58,728 bases of DNA, taken from the IMG/VR virus record IMGVR_UViG_3300045988_090936, one strand, 5' to 3'. Made by a program: the position numbers and the translations under genes. Positions within the stretch are counted from its first letter, which is position 1, and each line of letters begins with the position of its first letter. The notes below the pieces were generated by a model. The model made no database searches. It saw only the letters and a program-made list of their open reading frames with translations, and was not told the origin of the DNA. The stretch is from a virus. This document shows, piece after piece, positions 8,290 through 58,728 of this stretch.

Positions 8290-9375
8290 CTAATCCTCTA
8301 ATAAAGCTGTTATTTGAATTATATCTTTTTGAACCATCTTAATAGCTCTATCATTATCTCCAAAGAAAATAGTTATATTATCATCAGGTAATACATCTAA
8401 TTGTTCTTTAAGATTTTTAATATCAACTAAAGCATTAAATTCTACTAAACCATCCACAACTGCTTTTGAATACTTAATATCTTCTTGTACTGTTTCTTCT
8501 ACTGAAGCAATACTTAATCTATCTTTCTTAAATGTTAGGTTAATACCATTTCTATCAAAGTCTTTGATAAATAGTAATGCTCTATCTAAAATATCTAATA
8601 ATTCTTTTTTACTAATATCTGCATTATAAGTAAATGAAGAAGATAACATAGATTGAATTGCCTCTAATGGATAATTCTCTCTATCTTGTCCTATAACACT
8701 TTGAATGATATAATCATTATCAAATATTGTTAAGGTATTAGTTTCTGATACATAATCTAATTTACCTTTTTCGATTCCTAATGACATTAAGATATTTCCT
8801 AACTCCCTGCTAATGAATAGTTCTTTTGCTTTTAATGATTCAATATTTGGAACTGATGATACTTTAAATGCATCTGAAGCAATTATTTGTGCTGCTAGGT
8901 AATAGTTATTCATTTCTTTAGCATCAAATGAAGCAGGTATTGAAGATTTGGCAATTTCTAATCTTCTTGTTAATTCTTTGAAATCTATTTCAGTACCATT
9001 ACCAGCTGGTTCCTTTATCTCTGGAAACTTAATTACTTCTCCACTTTCATCTATACCAATATCTAAATAGTATAGACCATTACCTTCAATTACTAAAGCA
9101 TTACCATTCATATCAAATCCTATTTCAGGAGTTGTTATTTTATTAACTAGGCTAGTTAGTAATTGAACATCTACTACTACTCTCATTTCATCTGTTGTTT
9201 CTACCTTTTCTTTTATTTGGAAAGTAGTTCTTGTATCTGTAGTAGTAATACTTAAATAACCACCTTCTATTTTAACTTCAGTTAATATTGTTAGTGGTGA
9301 AAACTTATCTAAACTACAAACCTTAACGGCTTTGTTTAACATCTTCTGAATACTTTCGGTTTTAACTTTTATCAT
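8290..9375 (-). CDS. dnaN: DNA polymerase III beta sliding clamp
   Basis: 361 aa; N-terminal pattern (LNKAVKV......PLTILTEVKIEGGYLSITTTD) typical of DnaN. Confidence 0.75.
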   Translation of the reverse strand: MIKVKTESIQKMLNKAVKVCSLDKFSPLTILTEVKIEGGYLSITTTDTRTTFQIKEKVETTDEMRVVVDVQLLTSLVNKITTPEIGFDMNGNALVIEGNGLYYLDIGIDESGEVIKFPEIKEPAGNGTEIDFKELTRRLEIAKSSIPASFDAKEMNNYYLAAQIIASDAFKVSSVPNIESLKAKELFISRELGNILMSLGIEKGKLDYVSETNTLTIFDNDYIIQSVIGQDRENYPLEAIQSMLSSSFTYNADISKKELLDILDRALLFIKDFDRNGINLTFKKDRLSIASVEETVQEDIKYSKAVVDGLVEFNALVDIKNLKEQLDVLPDDNITIFFGDNDRAIKMVQKDIIQITALLED

Positions 9376-9385
9376 TTTCTTCCTC

Positions 9386-9997
9386 CTATTTTACATTTCT
9401 TGCCACTAATTCAGCGGCTTTTCTTTCAAACTCATTTCGAGCTTCTTTATCATTTCTTAAATCTTCAGTCATGAATGTTACATTGGTGCTACCTGATGCC
9501 TTAACCCCTCTTGCACTTACGCATCCATGTTTCATATTAAGATTTACATATACTTCTTTTGACCCAGTTGCCAAAGAAATACATTCAGCTATATCAGATG
9601 CTAGTTTTTCTTGTAACTGTAATCTTTTAGAACACATTTCTACTATTCTATATAATTTACTTAATCCTAACACTTTATATGTTCCATTTTCATTCTTAAC
9701 TGGAATATAACCTATTACTGCAGAACCATCAAACATTAGTGCTAAATGATGTTCGCAATGGCTATATATATTCTCTTGATATATTGTTACAATAGGATCA
9801 TATCCTACTTCAAAGTTTTTGCTATACTTTTCAGCAATTTCTTTGTTGGTATATTCTTCTCCTTCTAAAAGTTCTTGCCAGTAACCAGCAATTCTTCTTG
9901 GAGTTTCCTTTAATCCTTCTCTTTCAACATCTTGACCCATTGCAACTAGTAATTGCTTTGCAGCTTCTTTTACTGCTTCATAATTGAATTTTCCCAT
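9386..9997 (-). CDS. folE: GTP cyclohydrolase I
   Basis: GLKETPRR, YSHCEHHLALMFDGSAVIGYIP, HGCVSARGV motifs. Confidence 0.9.
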   Translation of the reverse strand: MGKFNYEAVKEAAKQLLVAMGQDVEREGLKETPRRIAGYWQELLEGEEYTNKEIAEKYSKNFEVGYDPIVTIYQENIYSHCEHHLALMFDGSAVIGYIPVKNENGTYKVLGLSKLYRIVEMCSKRLQLQEKLASDIAECISLATGSKEVYVNLNMKHGCVSARGVKASGSTNVTFMTEDLRNDKEARNEFERKAAELVARNVK

Positions 9998-10000
9998 AAT

Positions 10001-10723
10001 CTACACTCCTTGCTTATTACCCCATACTAAAGTATGAACTTGAGGTAATATAAATACTCTTTCCATATATGAATTAGCAACCATATTTATTAGTTTTTCA
10101 TAATCTGTTAAAACTCTTTTTGATATATCTCCAGCTTCAGTAGTATTAGTATTACCTACGCTTAAGTATAAATCAATATCAACGCCTTTTTCTCTATAAT
10201 AATCAACTAAAGCATAATACTTCATTGCAAATTCAAAATCTTCTTCATTGAATACTGGTATTTTAATTGCTACCTTTTGTTTAATACTTGTTAACAATTT
10301 CATATATTCATTAACTGTTTTATAAACATCAGGTTGTTTACTTGATGGTGCCTTTGGACTGATTACCAATAGGTCTACATCTAATAACCAATCAGGCATT
10401 TTACTTCCTTGTGTTTCTATATCCACAGTAATATTATTATCATGTAAGATATCTATTACTTCTTTGAAATCATATAAACAAGGATTACCACCAGTTAATA
10501 CTACATTGCTGCATTTACTATTATTACATTCTTGTACTAATATATCAGCCAATTCTTTTGTGCCATACCTTTTGATAGAACCATCTATCTTCCAGGCGAA
10601 TTTACTATCGCACCAAGCACATTTGAAATCACATCCTGCTACCCTTACAAATAAAGTTTGCATTCCTACATGTGGTCCTTCTCCTTGAATTGTTGGACCA
10701 AATATTTCAGCAACTGGAATCAT
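10001..10723 (-). CDS. queE: 7-carboxy-7-deazaguanine synthase (radical SAM)
   Basis: TIQGEGPHVGMQTLFVRVAGCDFKCAWCDS cluster motif. Confidence 0.9.
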   Translation of the reverse strand: MIPVAEIFGPTIQGEGPHVGMQTLFVRVAGCDFKCAWCDSKFAWKIDGSIKRYGTKELADILVQECNNSKCSNVVLTGGNPCLYDFKEVIDILHDNNITVDIETQGSKMPDWLLDVDLLVISPKAPSSKQPDVYKTVNEYMKLLTSIKQKVAIKIPVFNEEDFEFAMKYYALVDYYREKGVDIDLYLSVGNTNTTEAGDISKRVLTDYEKLINMVANSYMERVFILPQVHTLVWGNKQGV

Positions 10724-11241
10724 TATAACACTTCCTTTTCATCAAATAATGATAATTGTTCATAATTACTATTTTCTTCCTCTACTTCTTCATAATCTTT
10801 TTCTACTGTGGCATATGAATCAGCTGTTTCATATAATACCATTTTTGTTAACTGAACTTTTTTACTTACATTTAATTCATTATGTAAATAGTTTTCAATT
10901 AACTCTGCAAATACATGAACCATATATTCTGCTGTTGTTGGCTCTTCAAATAACATAACCTTGTTTTCATATCTATCAGCAACTTCTTTATAATCAAGAT
11001 TCTTTTTATCACCAACATAGCATAAAAACATATGATCTGGAAGAACTTCTTTCATAGCTTCTTTTAATAACTTAAAATCAACTACCATTCCAAATTCCGA
11101 ACTATCTCTTGGACCAGTTAATGTTACGTATGCTTTATATGTATGACCATGTAGATTTCTACATTTACCATTATAACCTTCTGGTAAAACATGTGCTGCA
11201 TCAAAATCAATATGCTTTGTTACACTTGTTAAGTTTTCCAT
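10723..11241 (-). CDS. queD: 6-carboxy-5,6,7,8-tetrahydropterin synthase with acidic C-terminal tail
   Basis: FDAAHVLPEGYNGKCRNLHGHTY motif. Confidence 0.85.
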   Translation of the reverse strand: MENLTSVTKHIDFDAAHVLPEGYNGKCRNLHGHTYKAYVTLTGPRDSSEFGMVVDFKLLKEAMKEVLPDHMFLCYVGDKKNLDYKEVADRYENKVMLFEEPTTAEYMVHVFAELIENYLHNELNVSKKVQLTKMVLYETADSYATVEKDYEEVEEENSNYEQLSLFDEKEVL

Positions 11242-11272: not shown

Positions 11273-11476
11273 TTACTTTTCTTTGATTAACTTATGAATG
11301 TTAATTATTACTAAAATACCATTTAGTAACCATACACTTAAACTGCCAATCAATATTCCATAAATGATAAATAGAATTGCTCCTATTGTATCAAATATTC
11401 TTATTAACTTTTTACTATTCATTGCAAACGCTATTACTATAAATAATGTTGCAATGATTCCTAATACTTCTACCAT
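11273..11476 (-). CDS. 67-aa integral membrane protein with three hydrophobic helices (possible triple-helix-bundle mini-transporter)
   Basis: Three hydrophobic stretches (LGIIATLFIVIAFAM / IGAILFIIYGILIG / VWLLNGILVIINI); translationally coupled inside the que/dpdA operon. Confidence 0.55.
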   Translation of the reverse strand: MVEVLGIIATLFIVIAFAMNSKKLIRIFDTIGAILFIIYGILIGSLSVWLLNGILVIINIHKLIKEK

Positions 11477-11874
11477 CTACTCATATCCTCCCACGGATAA
11501 ACAATCCATTCATCCTTCTTTACATATTCGAAATAATCAAAGAAGCATTGGAATTGTGCTTCCTCTGCTAATTGATTATCTTTCACATACATTGCTGTTA
11601 TAAAATAATTCTTCTCATTCATTAAATCTGAATACTTCTTCATTGTTATACCTGTATCAATAATATCATCAATGATAATACAACCAGGTTGTGGATTCAT
11701 TAGTATTGGTTTATCTATTTCATAAGATAATAAGGTTGCAAGCATTAAACCACCTCTTGGAAATGTAAATATTCCAGGACATTCATCTAAATGAAAGTAT
11801 TGATCTTTTTTAAGTCTATCTACTAAATTATATAGATATTCTTTTACTTCCCACCATTGAACATATTTCTTCAT
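11470..11874 (-). CDS. type I phosphoribosyltransferase, Gpt (xanthine-guanine PRTase)-like
   Basis: PRPP motif CIIIDDIIDTGITM, FPRGGLMLATLL, C-terminal WIVYPWE; overall layout parallels E. coli Gpt. Confidence 0.75.
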   Translation of the reverse strand: MKKYVQWWEVKEYLYNLVDRLKKDQYFHLDECPGIFTFPRGGLMLATLLSYEIDKPILMNPQPGCIIIDDIIDTGITMKKYSDLMNEKNYFITAMYVKDNQLAEEAQFQCFFDYFEYVKKDEWIVYPWEDMSRW

Positions 11875-11883
11875 AATTACCTC

Positions 11884-12786
11884 CTAGAATAATGGCTTTC
11901 TTGTAATCTTATCTTCGTATTTATAATTGTTACAGAAGTCTAATATGTAATAAACATTTATTACTGTTCTATAGATATAGCCTCTTTCTCCAGTTATTTG
12001 ATCTAGGGTAATTCCTAGTTTATCAAGATACTTTTGTAATGTTTTCATTGCTGCATCTGATTTATTAAAGATATGATTCTTTAAATTACTTTGTACATCA
12101 CTTACTGGAATAATACCGTAATCAGTCATAATACTTCCTCTACTAGCACACATAATATGACTTGTACTATCTGCACTTGTTATTGGAAAACTTTTTAATA
12201 ACTTTTGATTAGTCATTCCGAATGTATGTACTTTAATTTTTCTACCAGTTTCTTTTTCAAATTCTTTTATAATTAAGAATACTTTATTTAAGAAATATTC
12301 TATTTGATTTTTAGATGCTCCAACTAAAGCACCAACTGCTATATAATCTTTTCCATATGATAAAATCTTTTTAAGATATTCCCAGCTTTCACCTTCATGG
12401 AAGACTGGTATAAGTTTTTCAGGATACTTTAAATGTTCCATCATATAGTTATAATTCTTTTCGCTGGCTTCTTCTGTTTTATCCCCCTTGAATTTAGGGA
12501 TTACATCTAATGGTGCTATTATATCAACATATTCACCAATCTCATTGATATAAGATATATAACTATCTATATCAACTTCATCTCCTTTAGTACTTACTGT
12601 ATAAGCACCAGAGTCTATAAATAATTTACCAGTATATTCAGGATGTTCTTTTTTATATTCAACAACCCTCTTAATCATTGGTCTATTATTATATTGAGAG
12701 AGCAACATATTACAGTTGTTCTCCATCAATATATTAAATAACAATTCTGAATTCCATCCTACAAAGAAATAATCTAACTTATTCAT
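11884..12786 (-). CDS. dpdA: DpdA-type DNA-guanine transglycosylase
   Basis: LFIDSGAYT motif, TGT-like size, and context with folE/queDEC. Start moved to MNKLDYF behind GGAGG. Confidence 0.75.
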   Translation of the reverse strand: MNKLDYFFVGWNSELLFNILMENNCNMLLSQYNNRPMIKRVVEYKKEHPEYTGKLFIDSGAYTVSTKGDEVDIDSYISYINEIGEYVDIIAPLDVIPKFKGDKTEEASEKNYNYMMEHLKYPEKLIPVFHEGESWEYLKKILSYGKDYIAVGALVGASKNQIEYFLNKVFLIIKEFEKETGRKIKVHTFGMTNQKLLKSFPITSADSTSHIMCASRGSIMTDYGIIPVSDVQSNLKNHIFNKSDAAMKTLQKYLDKLGITLDQITGERGYIYRTVINVYYILDFCNNYKYEDKITRKPLF

Positions 12787-14005
12787 CTGATACCTCCACA
12801 TCTTTTTGGCATAATGGATCTATCAAACCATTTCTTCTAAATGCTGTTTCTCTCATAAAACATGGTCCACAATGATGGCAAGGTTCTTCTCCATCCCTAT
12901 AACAAGACCAAGTATATTGAAATGGTGCATTATACTCATTACCGAATGCCACTATTTCATGTTTCATAAGATTTCCTACTGGAGTTTCTATATCAACATA
13001 TTTACCATTTTGTACAGCCCCATATAAACAAGAGTTAAAATCTTTTATGAATTGGTTTTCATTATCTGGATATGCTCCACCTTCTTCTAGGTTTGTTCCT
13101 AATAGAATATGACTATATCCATTTGCCTCACAGAATCCTACTGCTAATGATAACATTATTAAGTTTCTTGCAGGTACCCATTCATAAGCATATTCAGCAC
13201 CTTCAATTCCATCTTTGATATCTTTCTTATCTCCAAATAATGCTGATTGCTTATTCATAAAGGACATATCTATTGGAATAACTTTATAATCACATCCTAG
13301 GTATTCAGCAATTTTCTTAATACATTCTAATTCTTTACTTTCAGCGATACAACCATATTGGTAATGTAATAGAATAGTATTCTTTGCTCCATATTTAGCA
13401 CAAGTATATGCTGCTACAGCTGTACTATCTAATCCACCTGAGCATACTACTGCTGCTTTACCTGTATCCTCTCTAGGTATTGGTAATGATTCTCCTGTTT
13501 CTTCATCTAGTATTGAATATGGTTCTAACCTCTTAACATTTTCTATTCCTTCTAAATGATTTTTATAACTTGAAAATATAAAATTCTCTTTTCCTGGGTT
13601 AGCATAGAAAATAGGTTTATAATTACAAGCAAGATAGAAATGTCCGTTTGGTTTCATTATTGCTAATGCATATGAACCTTTCAATTTTTGAATACTTTTT
13701 TGTAATGTATAGATATTACTAAAATCTAATACTTTAGATATAATGTAACTATCTATCATACCTTCCTTATTTCCCAACTCTTTATCATTTGCAATAGTAC
13801 CATTATGCACTACCTTATAATCTGTTCCGAATGGTTGGTTAAACTCGGAACTTTCAACTTCAGTTGTTGGAACTGCTCTATGATTACAAATCCAACTTCC
13901 TTTACGATAGAAGATATTACTATAATCTCTTCCTCTATCTAGTGCTCTATTGAACACTTTTATTGCTTCTTGGTCAAACTTACGACCACCACAAATTGAA
14001 CACAT
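12779..14005 (-). CDS. queC: Gat-QueC fusion (class II glutamine amidotransferase + 7-cyano-7-deazaguanine synthase domain)
   Basis: Starts MCSICGG (N-terminal Cys) behind AAAGGAGG. Also HNGTIAND, PP-loop VCSGGLDST and the zinc motif CHHCGPC. Confidence 0.85.
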   Translation of the reverse strand: MCSICGGRKFDQEAIKVFNRALDRGRDYSNIFYRKGSWICNHRAVPTTEVESSEFNQPFGTDYKVVHNGTIANDKELGNKEGMIDSYIISKVLDFSNIYTLQKSIQKLKGSYALAIMKPNGHFYLACNYKPIFYANPGKENFIFSSYKNHLEGIENVKRLEPYSILDEETGESLPIPREDTGKAAVVCSGGLDSTAVAAYTCAKYGAKNTILLHYQYGCIAESKELECIKKIAEYLGCDYKVIPIDMSFMNKQSALFGDKKDIKDGIEGAEYAYEWVPARNLIMLSLAVGFCEANGYSHILLGTNLEEGGAYPDNENQFIKDFNSCLYGAVQNGKYVDIETPVGNLMKHEIVAFGNEYNAPFQYTWSCYRDGEEPCHHCGPCFMRETAFRRNGLIDPLCQKDVEVSDE

Positions 14006-14066: not shown

Positions 14067-14074
14067 ATTATACG
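14067..14074 (-). promoter_or_regulatory. CGTATAAT motif copy
   Basis: ATACGTATAATAATATTAGGTGG, overlapping the polA stop and upstream of gat-queC. Confidence 0.4.
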
Positions 14075-16344
14075 TATATACTTTCCCCATACCAGCAAGC
14101 TGATATTTCTGCATCACATTTCATTGGAACTGAACATCTATCATTTGACTCTATCATTACTTGGGATAATAATTCTGTTACCCTCTTAACATTCTCAATA
14201 GGACATTCTCCTATATTTTCATCATGAACTGACATCAATAATCTAAAACCTAATTCATTTAGTTCTTTATGATTATACAATGCCACCATTGCTCTTTTTG
14301 TCATATCGGCAGCAGAACCTTGAACTATTCCATTAACTACTTGTCTTTCACTAGATGCCAACCAAGCTCCATTATCTTCAATGATTATTCCATTTGCTAA
14401 TGCATCATCCATTATTTTCTTTCTTTGATTAAATGATGCTTTTTCTAATTGTTTATTGTAATAATCTTTTATCTTTTGACTTACTTCATTATCTGCTTCT
14501 TCATCCGAATCAAATAATGGGTCAAAGTTAATTGGTCTGTTAACCCCATACTTATATTCATATCTTTCTTTTTGAATATATTTAAGATATCTTCTTCTTC
14601 CCCATAAAGTAGTTGTATAACCAGTTTTCTTTGCTTCGGCTTTGGCTTTTTCTATGTATTCCTTTATCTTTGGAAAACCTTCAAATAAGGAATTAGAAAT
14701 TTCTCTTGCTTCTTCTGTTGTTATTCCTAACTGTTCAGCAACTGAAGCATCTCCTCTACCGTACATTAACCCTAGAACAACTCCTTTAATATTACTTCTT
14801 CTTTTCTTACCTTCTTTATTGGTTGTACCATCAGGATAGAATTCTTTACAATCCTCATAAGGAACATGAAATGCTATACTCGCCATTGTTGAGTATAAAT
14901 CTTTTCCTGTCTTATAGGCATTTATCATATTCTCATCCCCACATAAATGTGCAAGTATTCTTGGCTCTTGTTGGGAATAATCGGCACCTACCATGTAATA
15001 ACCATCAGTGGCTTTAAACATACATCTAATTCCACCATCTCTTGGTATATTTTGTAAGTTAGGGTCTGAAGAACTAAATCTTCCGGTGTCAGCACCATTT
15101 TGATTAAATGAAGCATGTAATCTACCTGTTACCTTTTCAATCTTGGCTGGTATTGCTTCAATATAGGTACTTAATAATTTTTTAATAGTTCTATATTCTA
15201 AAATAGCATTAGTTAATGGTAAGTTAATATGTTTCAAAGCTGCTTCATCTACAGCTCTTGGATTATCTTTGTTACCACTTTGACATCCAATGATATCATA
15301 TAACAATATTGCTAATTGTTCAGGACTATTAAAGTTTATTGGATTTTGTAACTTGGTATTATAATGTATCATTCTGAATTTAACTATATTATCTTCATAC
15401 AATGCTATATTATCCTCTACCTCTTTAGTTACCTTTTCCATTTTCTCATTGTATTCTTTATTTAGTTTATCAGCAAGTTCCATATCTATTGCTACTCCAG
15501 TTCTTTGCATTGATGCTGTTACCTGGATTAAAGGAACTTCAACTTCTCTAAATAATTTATACATTTCAGCATTCTCTGGTCTTTCAAAGAATTCTTTTTG
15601 ATGTTCATAAAGTTTATAAGTCATCCAAGCATCTCTTGCGGCATAAATATATCCACTTTCAATTGGTACTTGGTCAAATCTTAAACCTTCAAACAAATCA
15701 TTAAAATGTGATAGAGTTTCTATCTTATCTTTATTTTCTAAATGACTACAATATTTACTGTATTGGTCTTTCAAACTTCTTTTGAATTCATCATTAGTTA
15801 TTAAATAACTTGCAACCAATGTATCCCAATATGGACAGTTCATTTTAGAATCTAGAAAAGTTTCAAGCATATTGATATCGAACTTACCATTGTGGTAAAT
15901 GAATTTAATGTTTTCATTAACGCATTGTTTCATTTTATCCTTAACAAATTCTATATCAGCTTGATTTTCAAGTCTCTTATTATAAATACTTGAAATATGA
16001 TTTAGAGGGATATAGGAAGCTTTTTCTCCCTCTGTATATAAACATATTCCAACAATTATATCTTCAAAAAAGTTTAATCCTGTAGTTTCTGTATCTATTG
16101 CTGCTATTCCATTGGCTCTTATATGCTCGAAGTATTCTTCAATTTCTTCATTGCTGATTAGTATTCTATAATCATCTTTATATTCTCCAAGGTTTTCGCT
16201 GATTCTTTCTCTTATTGCATTTATTCTTGCTAATAGATTATTGCTCTTTGAAGTTTTCTTATTTTGAGACTTTTTTAATGCCTTCTCTTTTAACATCCTA
16301 TCCATTTCTTTTGAAGTTCTTGAATAAGTATCAAAGAGAGCCAT
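14068..16344 (-). CDS. polA: family A DNA polymerase with 3-prime-5-prime exonuclease domain
   Basis: IAAIDTETTGL (Exo I), RLHASFNQNGADTGRFSSSDPNLQNIP (motif A region), RRSNIKGVVLGLMYG (motif B), MSVHDE (motif C). Confidence 0.92.
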   Translation of the reverse strand: MALFDTYSRTSKEMDRMLKEKALKKSQNKKTSKSNNLLARINAIRERISENLGEYKDDYRILISNEEIEEYFEHIRANGIAAIDTETTGLNFFEDIIVGICLYTEGEKASYIPLNHISSIYNKRLENQADIEFVKDKMKQCVNENIKFIYHNGKFDINMLETFLDSKMNCPYWDTLVASYLITNDEFKRSLKDQYSKYCSHLENKDKIETLSHFNDLFEGLRFDQVPIESGYIYAARDAWMTYKLYEHQKEFFERPENAEMYKLFREVEVPLIQVTASMQRTGVAIDMELADKLNKEYNEKMEKVTKEVEDNIALYEDNIVKFRMIHYNTKLQNPINFNSPEQLAILLYDIIGCQSGNKDNPRAVDEAALKHINLPLTNAILEYRTIKKLLSTYIEAIPAKIEKVTGRLHASFNQNGADTGRFSSSDPNLQNIPRDGGIRCMFKATDGYYMVGADYSQQEPRILAHLCGDENMINAYKTGKDLYSTMASIAFHVPYEDCKEFYPDGTTNKEGKKRRSNIKGVVLGLMYGRGDASVAEQLGITTEEAREISNSLFEGFPKIKEYIEKAKAEAKKTGYTTTLWGRRRYLKYIQKERYEYKYGVNRPINFDPLFDSDEEADNEVSQKIKDYYNKQLEKASFNQRKKIMDDALANGIIIEDNGAWLASSERQVVNGIVQGSAADMTKRAMVALYNHKELNELGFRLLMSVHDENIGECPIENVKRVTELLSQVMIESNDRCSVPMKCDAEISACWYGESIYV

Positions 16345-57840: not shown

Positions 57841-58479
57841 TTACTTGACATTTTTATTGACATTTCCGTATAGATATTTATCTAATCCTGCTTTAAAATC
57901 TTCTAACATTCCAGGACTTTCTAGAATATAGGTTGCTCTCATATCAGCCATATGTAATACCAATGATTCAGGATACTTATTAAATAAATCACTTGAACTA
58001 AAATAACTAGTATCTACAAATCCACCCATATGATTTCTTATCATAGCAATTTCTACTTCAGTTAATTGAATGTATTGTTGTGCAATAATAATACTTTTCT
58101 CTGCATGTCCCATTGGAAACATATCTTCTACTGTATAATATGGTTCTTGTACCCAAGCGCCATTCTTCTTAACATTTTTAGTATCCATTTTATAATAGTT
58201 AACCTTACATATATCATGTAACAATGCTGCTATAACTACTGTATCTTTTGGTATATTAAATAGTTGTAATAAATCTGACATTCTTAAGCATTCATAATAT
58301 ACATTTAAACTATGATGTAATAATCCACCTTCATAATTAGAATGATATCTTGTACTAGCTGGTGCTACTTTAAAATCTGAATTATCTAACCATTGAATAA
58401 GATTTTCTATTCCTTTTCTTCTTGTACTTAATAATAAAGTTTTGAATGTTTCCCATTCTTCTTGTATAACATTATTCAT
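57841..58479 (-). CDS. HD-domain metal-dependent phosphohydrolase
   Basis: RYHSNYEGGLLHHSL, AALLHDICK, GHAEKS, LHMADM. Start moved to MNNVIQEEW behind GGAGGGAG. Confidence 0.7.
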   Translation of the reverse strand: MNNVIQEEWETFKTLLLSTRRKGIENLIQWLDNSDFKVAPASTRYHSNYEGGLLHHSLNVYYECLRMSDLLQLFNIPKDTVVIAALLHDICKVNYYKMDTKNVKKNGAWVQEPYYTVEDMFPMGHAEKSIIIAQQYIQLTEVEIAMIRNHMGGFVDTSYFSSSDLFNKYPESLVLHMADMRATYILESPGMLEDFKAGLDKYLYGNVNKNVK

Positions 58480-58728
58480 AATGTACTTGCTCCCTCCTTT
58501 CATATTGAATAAAACAATCATCCCCTAGAATCAATTCTACTGGGTAACAAGTATCCATTTCTAATTTATATTCACCTTTATGAATTGAATCTATAAAAGG
58601 TTTGATTGAACTTTTTTTATCTACTCCATATTTCATAAACCTACTTGAACCACTAAATACCTGGTTAGTATATGGTTTAATGAATAGGAATTGAGGAAAT
58701 AATGGACTTTTTCTATTTACTGCCACTA
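58472..58728 (-). CDS. 3-prime part of the junction-spanning hypothetical gene (5-prime end is at 120..209 by circularity)
   Basis: Frame stays open to the window edge; sequence continuity with 1..209. Confidence 0.6.
   Translation of the reverse strand, partial: VAVNRKSPLFPQFLFIKPYTNQVFSGSSRFMKYGVDKKSSIKPFIDSIHKGEYKLEMDTCYPVELILGDDCFIQYERREQVHYE
58610..58728. repeat. second copy of the 119-bp terminal overlap
   Basis: Identical to bases 1-119. Confidence 0.9.

Follow-up and report, generated by a model that had tools for sequence, protein, structure and literature searches.

In this study, we analyzed a stretch of viral DNA of 58,728 nucleotides (nt) (IMG/VR record IMGVR_UViG_3300045988_090936), the whole of which is referred to here as the window; the phage itself, a gut phage, is approximately 58.5 kb. 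Two small genes on its minus strand, located between queD and dpdA in an operon for 7-deazaguanine modification of DNA, encode a 134-amino-acid (aa) phosphoribosyltransferase (PRTase) and a 67-aa three-helix membrane protein (the mini protein). Comparisons with profiles, structures and related genomes lead us to conclude that a loop-less xanthine-guanine PRTase (XGPRT) subfamily and a half-size YgjV unit have both been recruited to this DNA modification pathway. Our preferred reading, which we put forward tentatively and hold to be possible rather than probable, is that they form the purine-base handling arm of the 7-deazaguanine module (predicted to make dG+/dPreQ0), clearing and recycling guanine or xanthine and feeding GTP to FolE.

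Both open reading frames (ORFs) lie where the first-pass annotation of the window had placed them, and their Pfam scores, conserved homologues and confident structural models mark them as real genes. The tight and overlapping spacing described in that annotation was also found, and each gene has its own GGAGG. Nine nucleotides separate the dpdA stop codon (11884 to 11886) from the ATG of the PRTase gene (11470 to 11874, minus strand), and the ribosome-binding site of the latter (GGAGG at 11880 to 11884) overlaps that stop codon. The PRTase stop codon (11470 to 11472) is followed by the ATG of the mini gene at 11474 to 11476, so that the mini-gene ORF (11273 to 11476, minus strand) overlaps the PRTase ORF by 7 nt; its ribosome-binding site, GGAGG at 11487 to 11491, lies within the 3' end of the PRTase gene. 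The mini-gene stop codon and the queD start are 31 nt apart.

The assignment of the first protein as a Gpt-like type I PRTase was upheld by the match to PF00156, which scored 31.1 bits (cutoff, 26.3). Among NCBIfam models, that of xanthine PRTase, PRK09177 (NF006613; 3e-9), scored best, at 36.6 bits, far below the equivalog cutoff of 138. Against the PDB, the family profile matched the Pyrococcus horikoshii purine PRTase 1vdm (3.8e-15), E. coli XGPRT (9e-11), Yersinia XGPRT (approximately 1e-10) and Sulfolobus GpT enzymes, including S. solfataricus GpT-2 (4Z1O) at 4.2e-8. The AlphaFold (AF2) model had a predicted local distance difference test score (pLDDT) of 95.8, and its best Foldseek matches were XGPRTs, with template modeling (TM) scores of 0.72 to 0.75. 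All of the motifs quoted earlier for this protein were found, namely, FPRGGL, which contains the pyrophosphate (PPi) loop FPRGG, CIIIDDIIDTGITM, and WIVYPWE; the 5-phosphoribosyl-1-pyrophosphate (PRPP)-binding motif CIIIDDIIDTGIT is present as well.

With E. coli Gpt (1A95 to 1A98 and 1NUL) and 1VDM, its best matches in sequence and structure, the phage enzyme shares the type I core fold, a similar size class, the PPi loop S/P-R-G-G, the PRPP motif hhhhDD-h-h-D-T/S-G-x-T, including the equivalent of D92, and the hood W-I-x-x-P-W-D/E with its stacking Trp. The suggestion that its architecture is that of E. coli XGPRT therefore holds for the fold and the motifs; however, the loop II hairpin (approximately residues 55 to 81 of XGPRT) is absent, which leaves the phage protein approximately 22 to 27 residues shorter, and the identity is approximately 21 to 23%. 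Furthermore, the phage gene sits in a DNA modification operon and not among purine salvage genes.

Residue conservation was assessed by aligning 68 distinct homologues from phages, with E. coli Gpt as the reference for the XGPRT numbering; the position of the gap was confirmed independently by the PDB alignments. Invariant or nearly so were R40-G41-G42, D69-D70, D73, G75, T/S77, W123, I/V124, P127, W128 and E129, which align with R37-G38-G39, D88-D89, D92, G94, T96, W134, I135, P138, W139 and D140 of XGPRT. R40, G41, G42, D69, D70, G75 and W123 are strictly invariant, residue 73 is Asp in 65 homologues and Glu in the other 3, E129 is present in 67 of the 68, and position 98 is Lys, His or Gln in 61. 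We take D73 to be the equivalent of XGPRT D92, which contacts purine N7 (acid/base), W123 that of W134, which stacks on the base, and E129 that of D140, which reads the 2-position; in XGPRT, Lys115 contacts O6, and Ile135 and Asp140 contact N1 and the 2-position. Likewise, by correspondence with 6-oxopurine PRTase structures, R-G-G would bind PPi, the D69-D70 pair would bind ribose and Mg, the G75-T/S77 region would form the 5'-phosphate loop, and the C-terminal residues would recognize the 6-oxo/2-amino edge of the base. Counterparts of the base-binding residues (W134, D92, K115 and I135/D140) were judged to be present in the family, and 116 homologues with the invariant residues were found in a large protein collection. 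Such strong conservation of all the motifs that bind PRPP, PPi and the base suggests that the active site is functional.

No counterpart of the loop II hairpin (XGPRT residues 54 to 81 or so, approximately 22 to 27 residues) was detected in any of the 68 phage sequences or in the AF2 model, and the profile alignments to solved XGPRT-type enzymes all split in two around it. On this basis, the phage proteins appear to have their origin in the XGPRT group, and presumably work as its members do, but they make up a loop-less subfamily of their own. Its size is considerable: there were 4,674 representatives at 50% identity with E values of 1e-3 or lower and 1,121 with E values of 1e-10 or lower, mostly 110 to 150 aa in length. 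A large PRTase family without the canonical catalytic loop is thereby defined. Some members (P0185, P0193 and P0199; L047, 7992 to 8975) carry a C-terminal extension of approximately 210 aa that has no Pfam match, and in L047 and L048 this extended form stands away from any que genes.

The mini protein had been likened to single triple-helix units of the SemiSWEET/PnuC/YgjV type, and the profile search agrees: it matched PF10688 (Imp-YgjV) with 31.8 bits against a cutoff of 23.5, covering only positions 91 to 154 of the 159 in the profile, that is, the second half of the model. The match to the SWEET model PF03083 (MtN3_slv) was below threshold (15.9 bits against 23.7; E value, 0.013), and the PQ motif of SWEET proteins is lacking. 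The AF2 model (pLDDT, 95.1) has helices at residues 2 to 18, 22 to 43, and 46 to 66. SemiSWEET and SWEET structures ranked first in the Foldseek search of the PDB, without significance (E values of about 1 to 4), and also headed the profile search of PDB sequences, likewise nonsignificantly. Residues E3, G6, R26, G32, F36, Y39, G40, S47, L50, L51 and N52 are invariant, and most of the 58 homologues in a large protein collection bear a precomputed PF10688 annotation. One triple-helix bundle of approximately 65 to 90 residues, as in the SemiSWEET, PnuC and YgjV proteins grouped in the MtN3-like clan of Pfam, is also what is predicted for the mini protein. We assign it as a half-size YgjV unit within the SWEET/PnuC clan. 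Because loop 1 and the C terminus are positively charged, an N-out/C-in topology is predicted, which would suit a parallel homodimer.

The genomic context ties the PRTase closely to deazaguanine biosynthesis. A scan of IMG/VR gave 135 confirmed PRTase relatives, and context was counted in the best 80. Since similarity to the query was the basis of retrieval, some contigs among these loci are redundant (L014 to L017, for instance, overlap L171 to L174), and the sample is not an unbiased one. In 76 of the 80 viral loci, at 30 to 100% identity, the PRTase gene was found within 8 kb of FolE, QueD, QueE, QueC or DpdA genes, which is a strongly positive outcome of the co-occurrence test that the first-pass annotation had called for. 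FolE was nearby in 71 loci, QueD in 68, QueE in 68, QueC in 55, and a DpdA of the window type in 47. There are at least six gene orders among these clusters, and relatives with only 31 to 60% identity are still located within a deazaguanine cluster, at differing positions. In a few viral loci (L047, L048 and L078), the 8 kb around the PRTase gene are free of que genes. The PRTase gene of the L058/L068 type is directly followed by a gene with a weak TGT match. Other candidates for a divergent DpdA, in clusters negative with the hidden Markov model (HMM), proved to be an HNH endonuclease, DUF932, an amidase, PolB or a transposase; since only the L058/L068 protein gave a TGT match, and a weak one, the presence of DpdA in every PRTase cluster is not established.

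Among GenBank phages, the window PRTase itself had no near-identical or protein-level match; cultured relatives were matched only by more central members of the family. In Flavobacterium phage immuto_2-6A, the PRTase gene lies within the series QueD-QueE-PRTase-FolE-...-DpdA-DpdN-Tmk-QueF. Cellulophaga phages phiST, phi19:2 and phi13:1 carry it near a ribonucleotide reductase (RNR) gene, which is two genes away in phiST. The gene is also carried by Brevundimonas and Synechococcus phages and, among Campylobacter phages, by 15 records that belong to the CP220 group; in CP220 it is two genes from a radical-SAM gene and outside the main que cluster, and in phiST it is likewise outside. With approximately 266 cultured phage records that have QueE, the PRTase marks a substantial minority.

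The family is also physically joined to FolE. In 35 records of cultured phages of the Queuovirinae type, it was matched within genes annotated as "GTP cyclohydrolase"; these are phages of Pseudomonas (NP1, PaMx25, JG012 and others), Vibrio (VpKK5 and others), Stenotrophomonas, Xanthomonas, Variovorax and Sphingomonas. In BI064_gp36 of NP1 (L211, 3809 to 4702), the PRTase domain is N terminal (residues 1 to approximately 112) and FolE occupies residues 116 to 296; the motifs PRGG, IDDLIDSGST and WIVFPWE are intact. The "GTP cyclohydrolase" annotations of NP1 and the 34 other records leave the fused PRTase domain unmentioned. A QueC-PRTase fusion (P0181) was given little weight, since it occurs on one 4.4-kb contig and looks like the result of a lost stop codon between adjacent genes.

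Further enzymes accompany the PRTase in some lineages. A GuaD-type guanine deaminase of 161 aa, whose best PDB match was the B. subtilis enzyme (1tiy/1wkq; E value, 4e-38), usually lies beside the PRTase gene. It was found in 16 of 83 PRTase-positive loci, for example, L019 (7489 to 7980), L021 (7509 to 7982) and L072 (7995 to 8480), and in 0 of 31 PRTase-negative loci (Fisher P value of 0.0055, with no correction for relatedness). A BT0820-type HAD phosphatase of 118 aa is encoded just upstream of the PRTase in L007 (6255 to 6611), L008, L009, L028 and L064. In P0298, with five cluster members, what is seemingly the same HAD domain (DFDGT motif) is fused, as judged by eye, to a divergent PRTase in which R40 is replaced by Lys and D73 by Ala. 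Some PRTase-containing lineages add QueF and an amidase; the counts from an iterated QueF HMM, which drifted onto FolE, a protein of related fold, were not used.

The mini gene has a context of its own. Matches to it were validated with a noniterated profile, and the L058-type members form a divergent subfamily. It was found in a dpdA/que context in 31 of 34 viral loci, again a strongly positive co-occurrence, and a Vut_1 (YhhQ family) gene lies directly beside it in 22 of the 34, in both orders and mostly with no gap. YhhQ (COG1738, Vut_1), a preQ0/preQ1 importer, is thus the commonest immediate neighbor of the mini gene and fills the same operon slot, but it is not homologous to the mini protein, being a multipass protein of approximately 230 aa from another family. 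Earlier work already counts it among the accessory genes of deazaguanine clusters in phages (Hutinet 2019; CAjan, PMC10484667). Several viral loci hold a minimal DpdA-Vut_1-mini module, in which both the biosynthesis genes and the PRTase are lacking; such modules must depend on an imported base. The Vut_1-mini pair was also found in two Firmicutes metagenome-assembled genomes (MAGs), of Scatosoma and Oscillospiraceae. The window has no Vut_1 gene, and no Vut_1-mini fusion was found among the loci. A 67-aa phiST protein (CGPG_00064) was considered as a homologue of the mini protein and rejected, as it is an acidic soluble protein.

The order PRTase then mini, with ORFs overlapping or nearly abutting, is retained as PRTase identity falls from 100% to 60% and 31%; it was seen in the window family, in L004 (60%; the mini gene was left uncalled by the annotators), in L007 to L009 (31%), and in L018 and L064. 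The idea that the two genes form a joint arm is thus only partly borne out: their adjacent order recurs, but they are not an obligate pair, since most clusters have the PRTase alone and a YhhQ-type transporter is a more frequent partner of the mini gene than the PRTase is. Cellular genomes yielded 77 homologues of the mini protein, almost all of which are standalone proteins of approximately 70 to 90 aa; the taxa represented include Flavobacteriaceae, Pasteurellaceae, Acholeplasmataceae and Lachnospiraceae. Their neighbors are lineage specific: AzlCD and LysR-type genes in Pasteurellaceae and, by eye, aquaporin, AlkB-like and desaturase-like genes in Flavobacteria. The closest cellular homologue (77% identity; L010/L011, 6852 to 7222) comes from Hadza gut contigs. 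It lies directly downstream of a tRNA-Ser(GCT) gene that ARAGORN detects and a search at Rfam gathering thresholds does not.

Based on these data, we postulate that the minimal XGPRT-type enzyme would join free guanine, and probably xanthine, to PRPP to yield GMP or XMP. Each base exchange by DpdA would free one guanine, which would then compete with the 7-deazaguanine base for the transglycosylase pocket. In tRNA-guanine transglycosylase (TGT), one pocket serves both the leaving guanine and the incoming base; if, as we infer by analogy, DpdA uses a single pocket in the same way, guanine removal should favor base insertion, and its clearance would pull the exchange forward. GMP could go back to GTP, the FolE substrate, and guanine derived from DNA would become raw material for the next modified base. 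The mini protein, in turn, would be a SemiSWEET-like half-transporter that acts as a homodimeric facilitator for a purine-type base. In the window, where it is predicted to be translationally coupled to the PRTase, bases passing through it would be trapped as nucleotides; in other phages its partner is a YhhQ-type preQ0 importer encoded beside DpdA. The gradient would set the direction of transport, with trapping in the company of the PRTase and efflux of released guanine in that of the preQ0 importer. Metabolic trapping with a cytoplasmic enzyme is the rule for Pnu-type facilitators, and the coupling of PRTase and mini protein would resemble it. In this scheme, the identity of the genes, the fold, the conserved motifs of the active site, the co-localization and the patterns of fusion and co-occurrence are observed, whereas we infer the guanine/xanthine substrate of the PRTase, its competence for catalysis without loop II, and the dimerization, cargo and direction of transport of the mini protein. 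For the latter, our confidence in a purine-base facilitator is low, and a preQ0/preQ1 importer or a partner of YhhQ is about as likely.

The many gene orders, the FolE fusion and the co-occurrence with GuaD indicate that the PRTase is tied to the deazaguanine pathway and is not a general salvage gene. As for its substrate, the context favors guanine recycling or clearing for several reasons. The XGPRT-like site, including the Asp that contacts N7, does not vary with the predicted end product; the same PRTase accompanies a plain QueC in one relative (L205) and a Gat-QueC fusion in the window, which argues that its substrate is independent of the end product. The DpdA1-type enzymes of the window and of NP1, which has the same post-replicative design, need a free base. 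GuaD, whose closest characterized homologue acts on free guanine, is found only in PRTase-positive clusters. Finally, FolE, the fusion partner, consumes GTP. A rough estimate also suggests that the load could be heavy: with 100 genomes of 58 kb and approximately 15% G per strand, complete substitution would set free guanines on the order of 10^6 per cell, which is millimolar in a cell of 1 fL. Millimolar guanine is well above its solubility, and release on this scale would explain the presence of the PRTase in all fully substituted phages.

Several points weigh against this interpretation. The PRTase follows FolE, QueD and QueE more tightly than it follows DpdA, and the minimal DpdA-Vut_1-mini modules have no PRTase, although guanine is released there too. 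Hosts usually have their own Gpt or Hpt, and the need for a phage copy is argument only. Because loop II, which is flexible and shuts over the active site in characterized 6-oxopurine PRTases, is missing, normal PRTase catalysis is not assured. The adjacency and apparent fusion of the HAD phosphatase fit a nucleotide-to-nucleoside pathway better than guanine salvage, and GuaD can be read as the remover of a competitor of a deazaguanine PRTase. No purine- or queuosine-related genes were found around the 77 cellular homologues of the mini gene, and no riboswitch was detected at Rfam gathering thresholds upstream of the closest one; the substrate of the mini protein is therefore left unconstrained by this context. 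In addition, TubE, the only characterized PRTase encoded beside FolE, QueD and QueE, uses 7-carboxy-7-deazaguanine (CDG) (PMC6112128).

This last point leads to the most serious competing account of the PRTase, namely, that it is a TubE/ToyH-like 7-deazaguanine PRTase that converts CDG, preQ0 or another 7-deazaguanine base with PRPP to a ribonucleotide and then to a modified dGTP analogue, in a pre-replicative route beside or instead of DpdA; we consider it rather unlikely, though well worth weighing. TubE (tubercidin) and ToyH (toyocamycin) of Streptomyces are, like the phage enzyme, purine PRTase homologues encoded beside GTP cyclohydrolase I, QueD and QueE, a company that is met in the window and in 68 to 71 of the 80 related loci; TubE uses CDG and PRPP in vitro, and 4Z1O, with which it is aligned in the supplement of PMC6112128, is also matched by the phage profile. 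The sequence link to TubE is an indirect one, through this shared PDB neighbor. TubE has 194 aa, compared with 134 for the phage enzyme. The TubE/ToyH clusters also have no DNA or tRNA transglycosylase and contain nucleotide-tailoring enzymes (GMP reductase-like, UbiD/decarboxylase, Nudix or HAD), whereas the window encodes DpdA and none of those. The best co-occurrence of the PRTase is with FolE, QueD and QueE, the genes that make CDG, but nearly all PRTase clusters, including that of the window, keep a DpdA that needs the free base, for which the PRTase would compete. Full replacement of deoxyguanosine (dG), seen in cultured phages that all have the PRTase, is typical of pre-replicative pathways; yet the FolE fusion is found in DpdA1-type Queuovirinae, whose characterized relatives are partially modified by DpdA exchange. 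Nucleotide-level genes do occur near the pathway in phiST (RNR and CGPG_00068, a MazG-like pyrophosphatase beside FolE at L210, 12176 to 12763) and in immuto (gp203, a thymidylate kinase-like gene between DpdN and QueF at L208, 10618 to 11142), and the HAD phosphatase adjoins the PRTase in some relatives and is fused to it, by eye, in one subfamily. The window, however, has no RNR, nucleotide kinase or dNTPase/dGTPase among its proteins by Pfam match, and, given that DpdA is present, the post-replicative route is the one encoded. The single QueC-PRTase contig would be in keeping with a deazaguanine substrate and counts for little. At the active site, the N7-contacting Asp is almost invariant, although 7-deazapurines have no N7, and the base-contacting residues are constant across the predicted products preQ0, G+, preQ1, DG, ADG and fdPreQ1. 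Slightly more doubtful still, in our view, is the broader claim of a previously unrecognized nucleotide-level pathway in phages (base and PRPP to NMP, to dNTP, to polymerase) in which the loop-less PRTase makes the committed step and which lies behind complete dG replacement in the CP220-like, phiST-like and immuto phages; if it is true, the window phage would hold far more modified G than the 25 to 30% or so that is typical of DpdA1 systems. We consider it very improbable that the PRTase gene is an auxiliary metabolic gene of a general kind, which would raise purine nucleotide pools for replication with no particular tie to the modification of DNA, or that it encodes a noncatalytic protein of the PRT fold such as a nucleotide-binding regulator. 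Nucleotide salvage genes are frequent in phages, loop II is missing, the phiST and CP220 genes are outside the main que cluster, and three loci have no que genes nearby; against this stand the 76 of 80 loci among deazaguanine genes in many orders, the recurrence of the FolE fusion in 35 cultured records, the restriction of GuaD to PRTase-positive loci and the strong conservation of the PRPP-, PPi- and base-binding motifs.

The mini gene raises a separate question, which is compatible with either reading of the PRTase. It may serve precursor uptake, as a preQ0/preQ1 importer or an accessory subunit of YhhQ unrelated to the PRTase, in which case its position would reflect operon packing; we regard this as less likely than not. 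The tight coupling to YhhQ family genes favors a role in transport: Vut_1 adjoins in 22 of the 34 viral loci and in two MAGs, the minimal modules must import their base, and the YhhQ homologues of phages have previously been described as putative preQ0 transporters. However, the mini gene occurs without Vut_1 in phages with the full pathway (the window, L007 and L018), two importers of one substrate in an operon would be redundant, no fusion of the two was found, and the PRTase-then-mini order is kept down to 31% PRTase identity. E. coli YhhQ, moreover, reportedly suffices for preQ0 uptake without a partner of the mini type.

The cultured phages with complete dG replacement give the PRTase wider importance. 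Cui 2023 reported 302,000 dDG per 10^6 nt in phiST and 345,000 fdPreQ1 per 10^6 nt in immuto_2-6A, with loss of the dG peak, and cites 100% dADG in CP220. The PRTase is present in all three groups (CP220-like, phiST-like and immuto), and no match to the PRTase queries was found in the partially modified 9g, CAjan and iggy. This correlation is confounded with DpdA3, to which Cui 2023 attributes completeness, and it is not exclusive, as the PRTase also accompanies DpdA1-type enzymes in NP1 and the window. DpdA3/DpdL could not be reconstituted in E. coli, other enzymes may be required, and the ADG nucleoside is reported in infected cells (Cui 2023); the failed reconstitution and the nucleoside would also suit a deazaguanine PRTase. 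As it occurs in every cultured group with 100% replacement, the PRTase is a candidate for the missing factor, which would act either by clearing massively released guanine or by feeding a nucleotide-level route.

Neither gene belongs to the canonical preQ0/DpdA pathway, as had been stated earlier; the main texts of the two key papers and the 2019 supplements never mention a phosphoribosyltransferase. The literature searched, with Crippen et al. 2019 and the Cui 2023 supplements outside its scope, yielded no paper in which phage deazaguanine systems are connected with a phosphoribosyltransferase, a guanine deaminase or a protein of the SemiSWEET/YgjV type. The claim that such a salvage arm would be new stands insofar as no paper assigning it a role was found, but GenBank already labels the phiST, CP220 and immuto genes "phosphoribosyl transferase." To the picture in the literature, of FolE-QueD-QueE-QueC and DpdA with an occasional YhhQ, our analysis adds the PRTase, the half-YgjV mini protein and, in some lineages, GuaD as recurrent accessories. 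Together, these three point to the handling of free purine bases as an integral part of the system. Our analysis also gives the uncharacterized half-YgjV proteins, a family found widely among Flavobacteriaceae, Pasteurellaceae and Firmicutes, their first functional context.

The operon that contains the two genes is a single minus-strand unit from 9.4 to 16.3 kb that encodes PolA, Gat-QueC, DpdA, the PRTase, the mini protein, QueD, QueE, FolE and a sliding-clamp homologue; the full set of FolE, QueD, QueE, Gat-QueC and DpdA is therefore encoded together. FolE (GTP cyclohydrolase I; 9386 to 9997; PF01227, 1.5e-48) catalyzes the GTP-consuming first step. QueE (CDG synthase; 10001 to 10723), a radical-SAM enzyme with Fer4_12 and Radical_SAM matches, is 61% identical to the QueE of related clusters, and QueD (CPH4 synthase; 10723 to 11241) matches PF01242 (PTPS, 8.8e-25). 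DpdA (305 aa; 11884 to 12801) is a DpdA1-like DNA guanine transglycosylase that matches phrog_887 (8e-42) and is 27% identical (E value of 4e-22 by BLASTP) to the DpdA of the Queuovirinae phage NP1; a DpdA3 assignment was rejected, as the DpdA3 proteins of phiST and immuto showed no similarity to it. Gat-QueC, a fusion of a class II glutamine amidotransferase and QueC, is followed on the plus-strand scale by polA (14068 to 16344, minus strand). The ORF as called extends to a TTG at 14098, overlapping polA; the true start is likely the ATG at 14005 (12779 to 14005, approximately 408 aa), because the resulting N terminus, MCSICGG, supplies the N-terminal Cys needed by a class II amidotransferase. 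The fusion matches QueC (5.8e-53), GATase_7 (1.8e-7) and phrog_10428 (3.8e-100).

In L205, a phage whose PRTase is 100% identical to that of the window, a plain 254-aa QueC (8320 to 9084) takes the place of Gat-QueC. Near-identical phages thus appear to swap the enzyme of the final step, with preQ0 and archaeosine, respectively, as the predicted products. The exact window PRTase sequence is indexed in 306 blocks of an assembly collection, which shows that this phage family turns up in many assemblies. The window phage is a contractile-tailed, AT-rich myovirus with no tRNA genes in its approximately 58.5 kb, and the GH25, CW_7 and LysM domains of its endolysin suggest a Gram-positive host. It shares with phage 9g and the Queuovirinae the genes for FolE, QueD, QueE, Gat-QueC and a DpdA1-like enzyme beside replication genes (polA and the clamp), but it is unrelated to them and differs in its Gram-positive-type endolysin, in having the PRTase as a separate gene, which NP1-type Queuovirinae have fused to FolE, and in its extra mini-transporter gene.

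An HD domain protein of 226 aa, labeled as a metal-dependent phosphohydrolase, is encoded at the other end of the window (57841 to 58521, minus strand). It matches phrog_28876 (9.8e-39) and phrog_5889 (1.2e-36), PHROGs that it shares with an HD gene located directly after the divergent DpdA in the L058-type PRTase-containing clusters, and may be associated with the deazaguanine module; against solved structures, it gave only a marginal match to the HD domain of YhaM. An amidase signature enzyme of approximately 500 aa (PF01425; E values down to 5e-96) was found in or beside PRTase-containing que clusters in L039 (4599 to 6092), L049 (9425 to 10960) and L034, and could interconvert amide and acid forms of the 7-substituent. 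Lastly, homing endonuclease genes were seen in these regions: polA is split or interrupted by GIY-YIG, HNH or NUMOD3 genes in several related phages (L001, 2632 to 6505; upstream of the clusters in L007 to L009), one such gene lies between QueC and QueD in L019, and another lies between FolE and DpdA in NP1.

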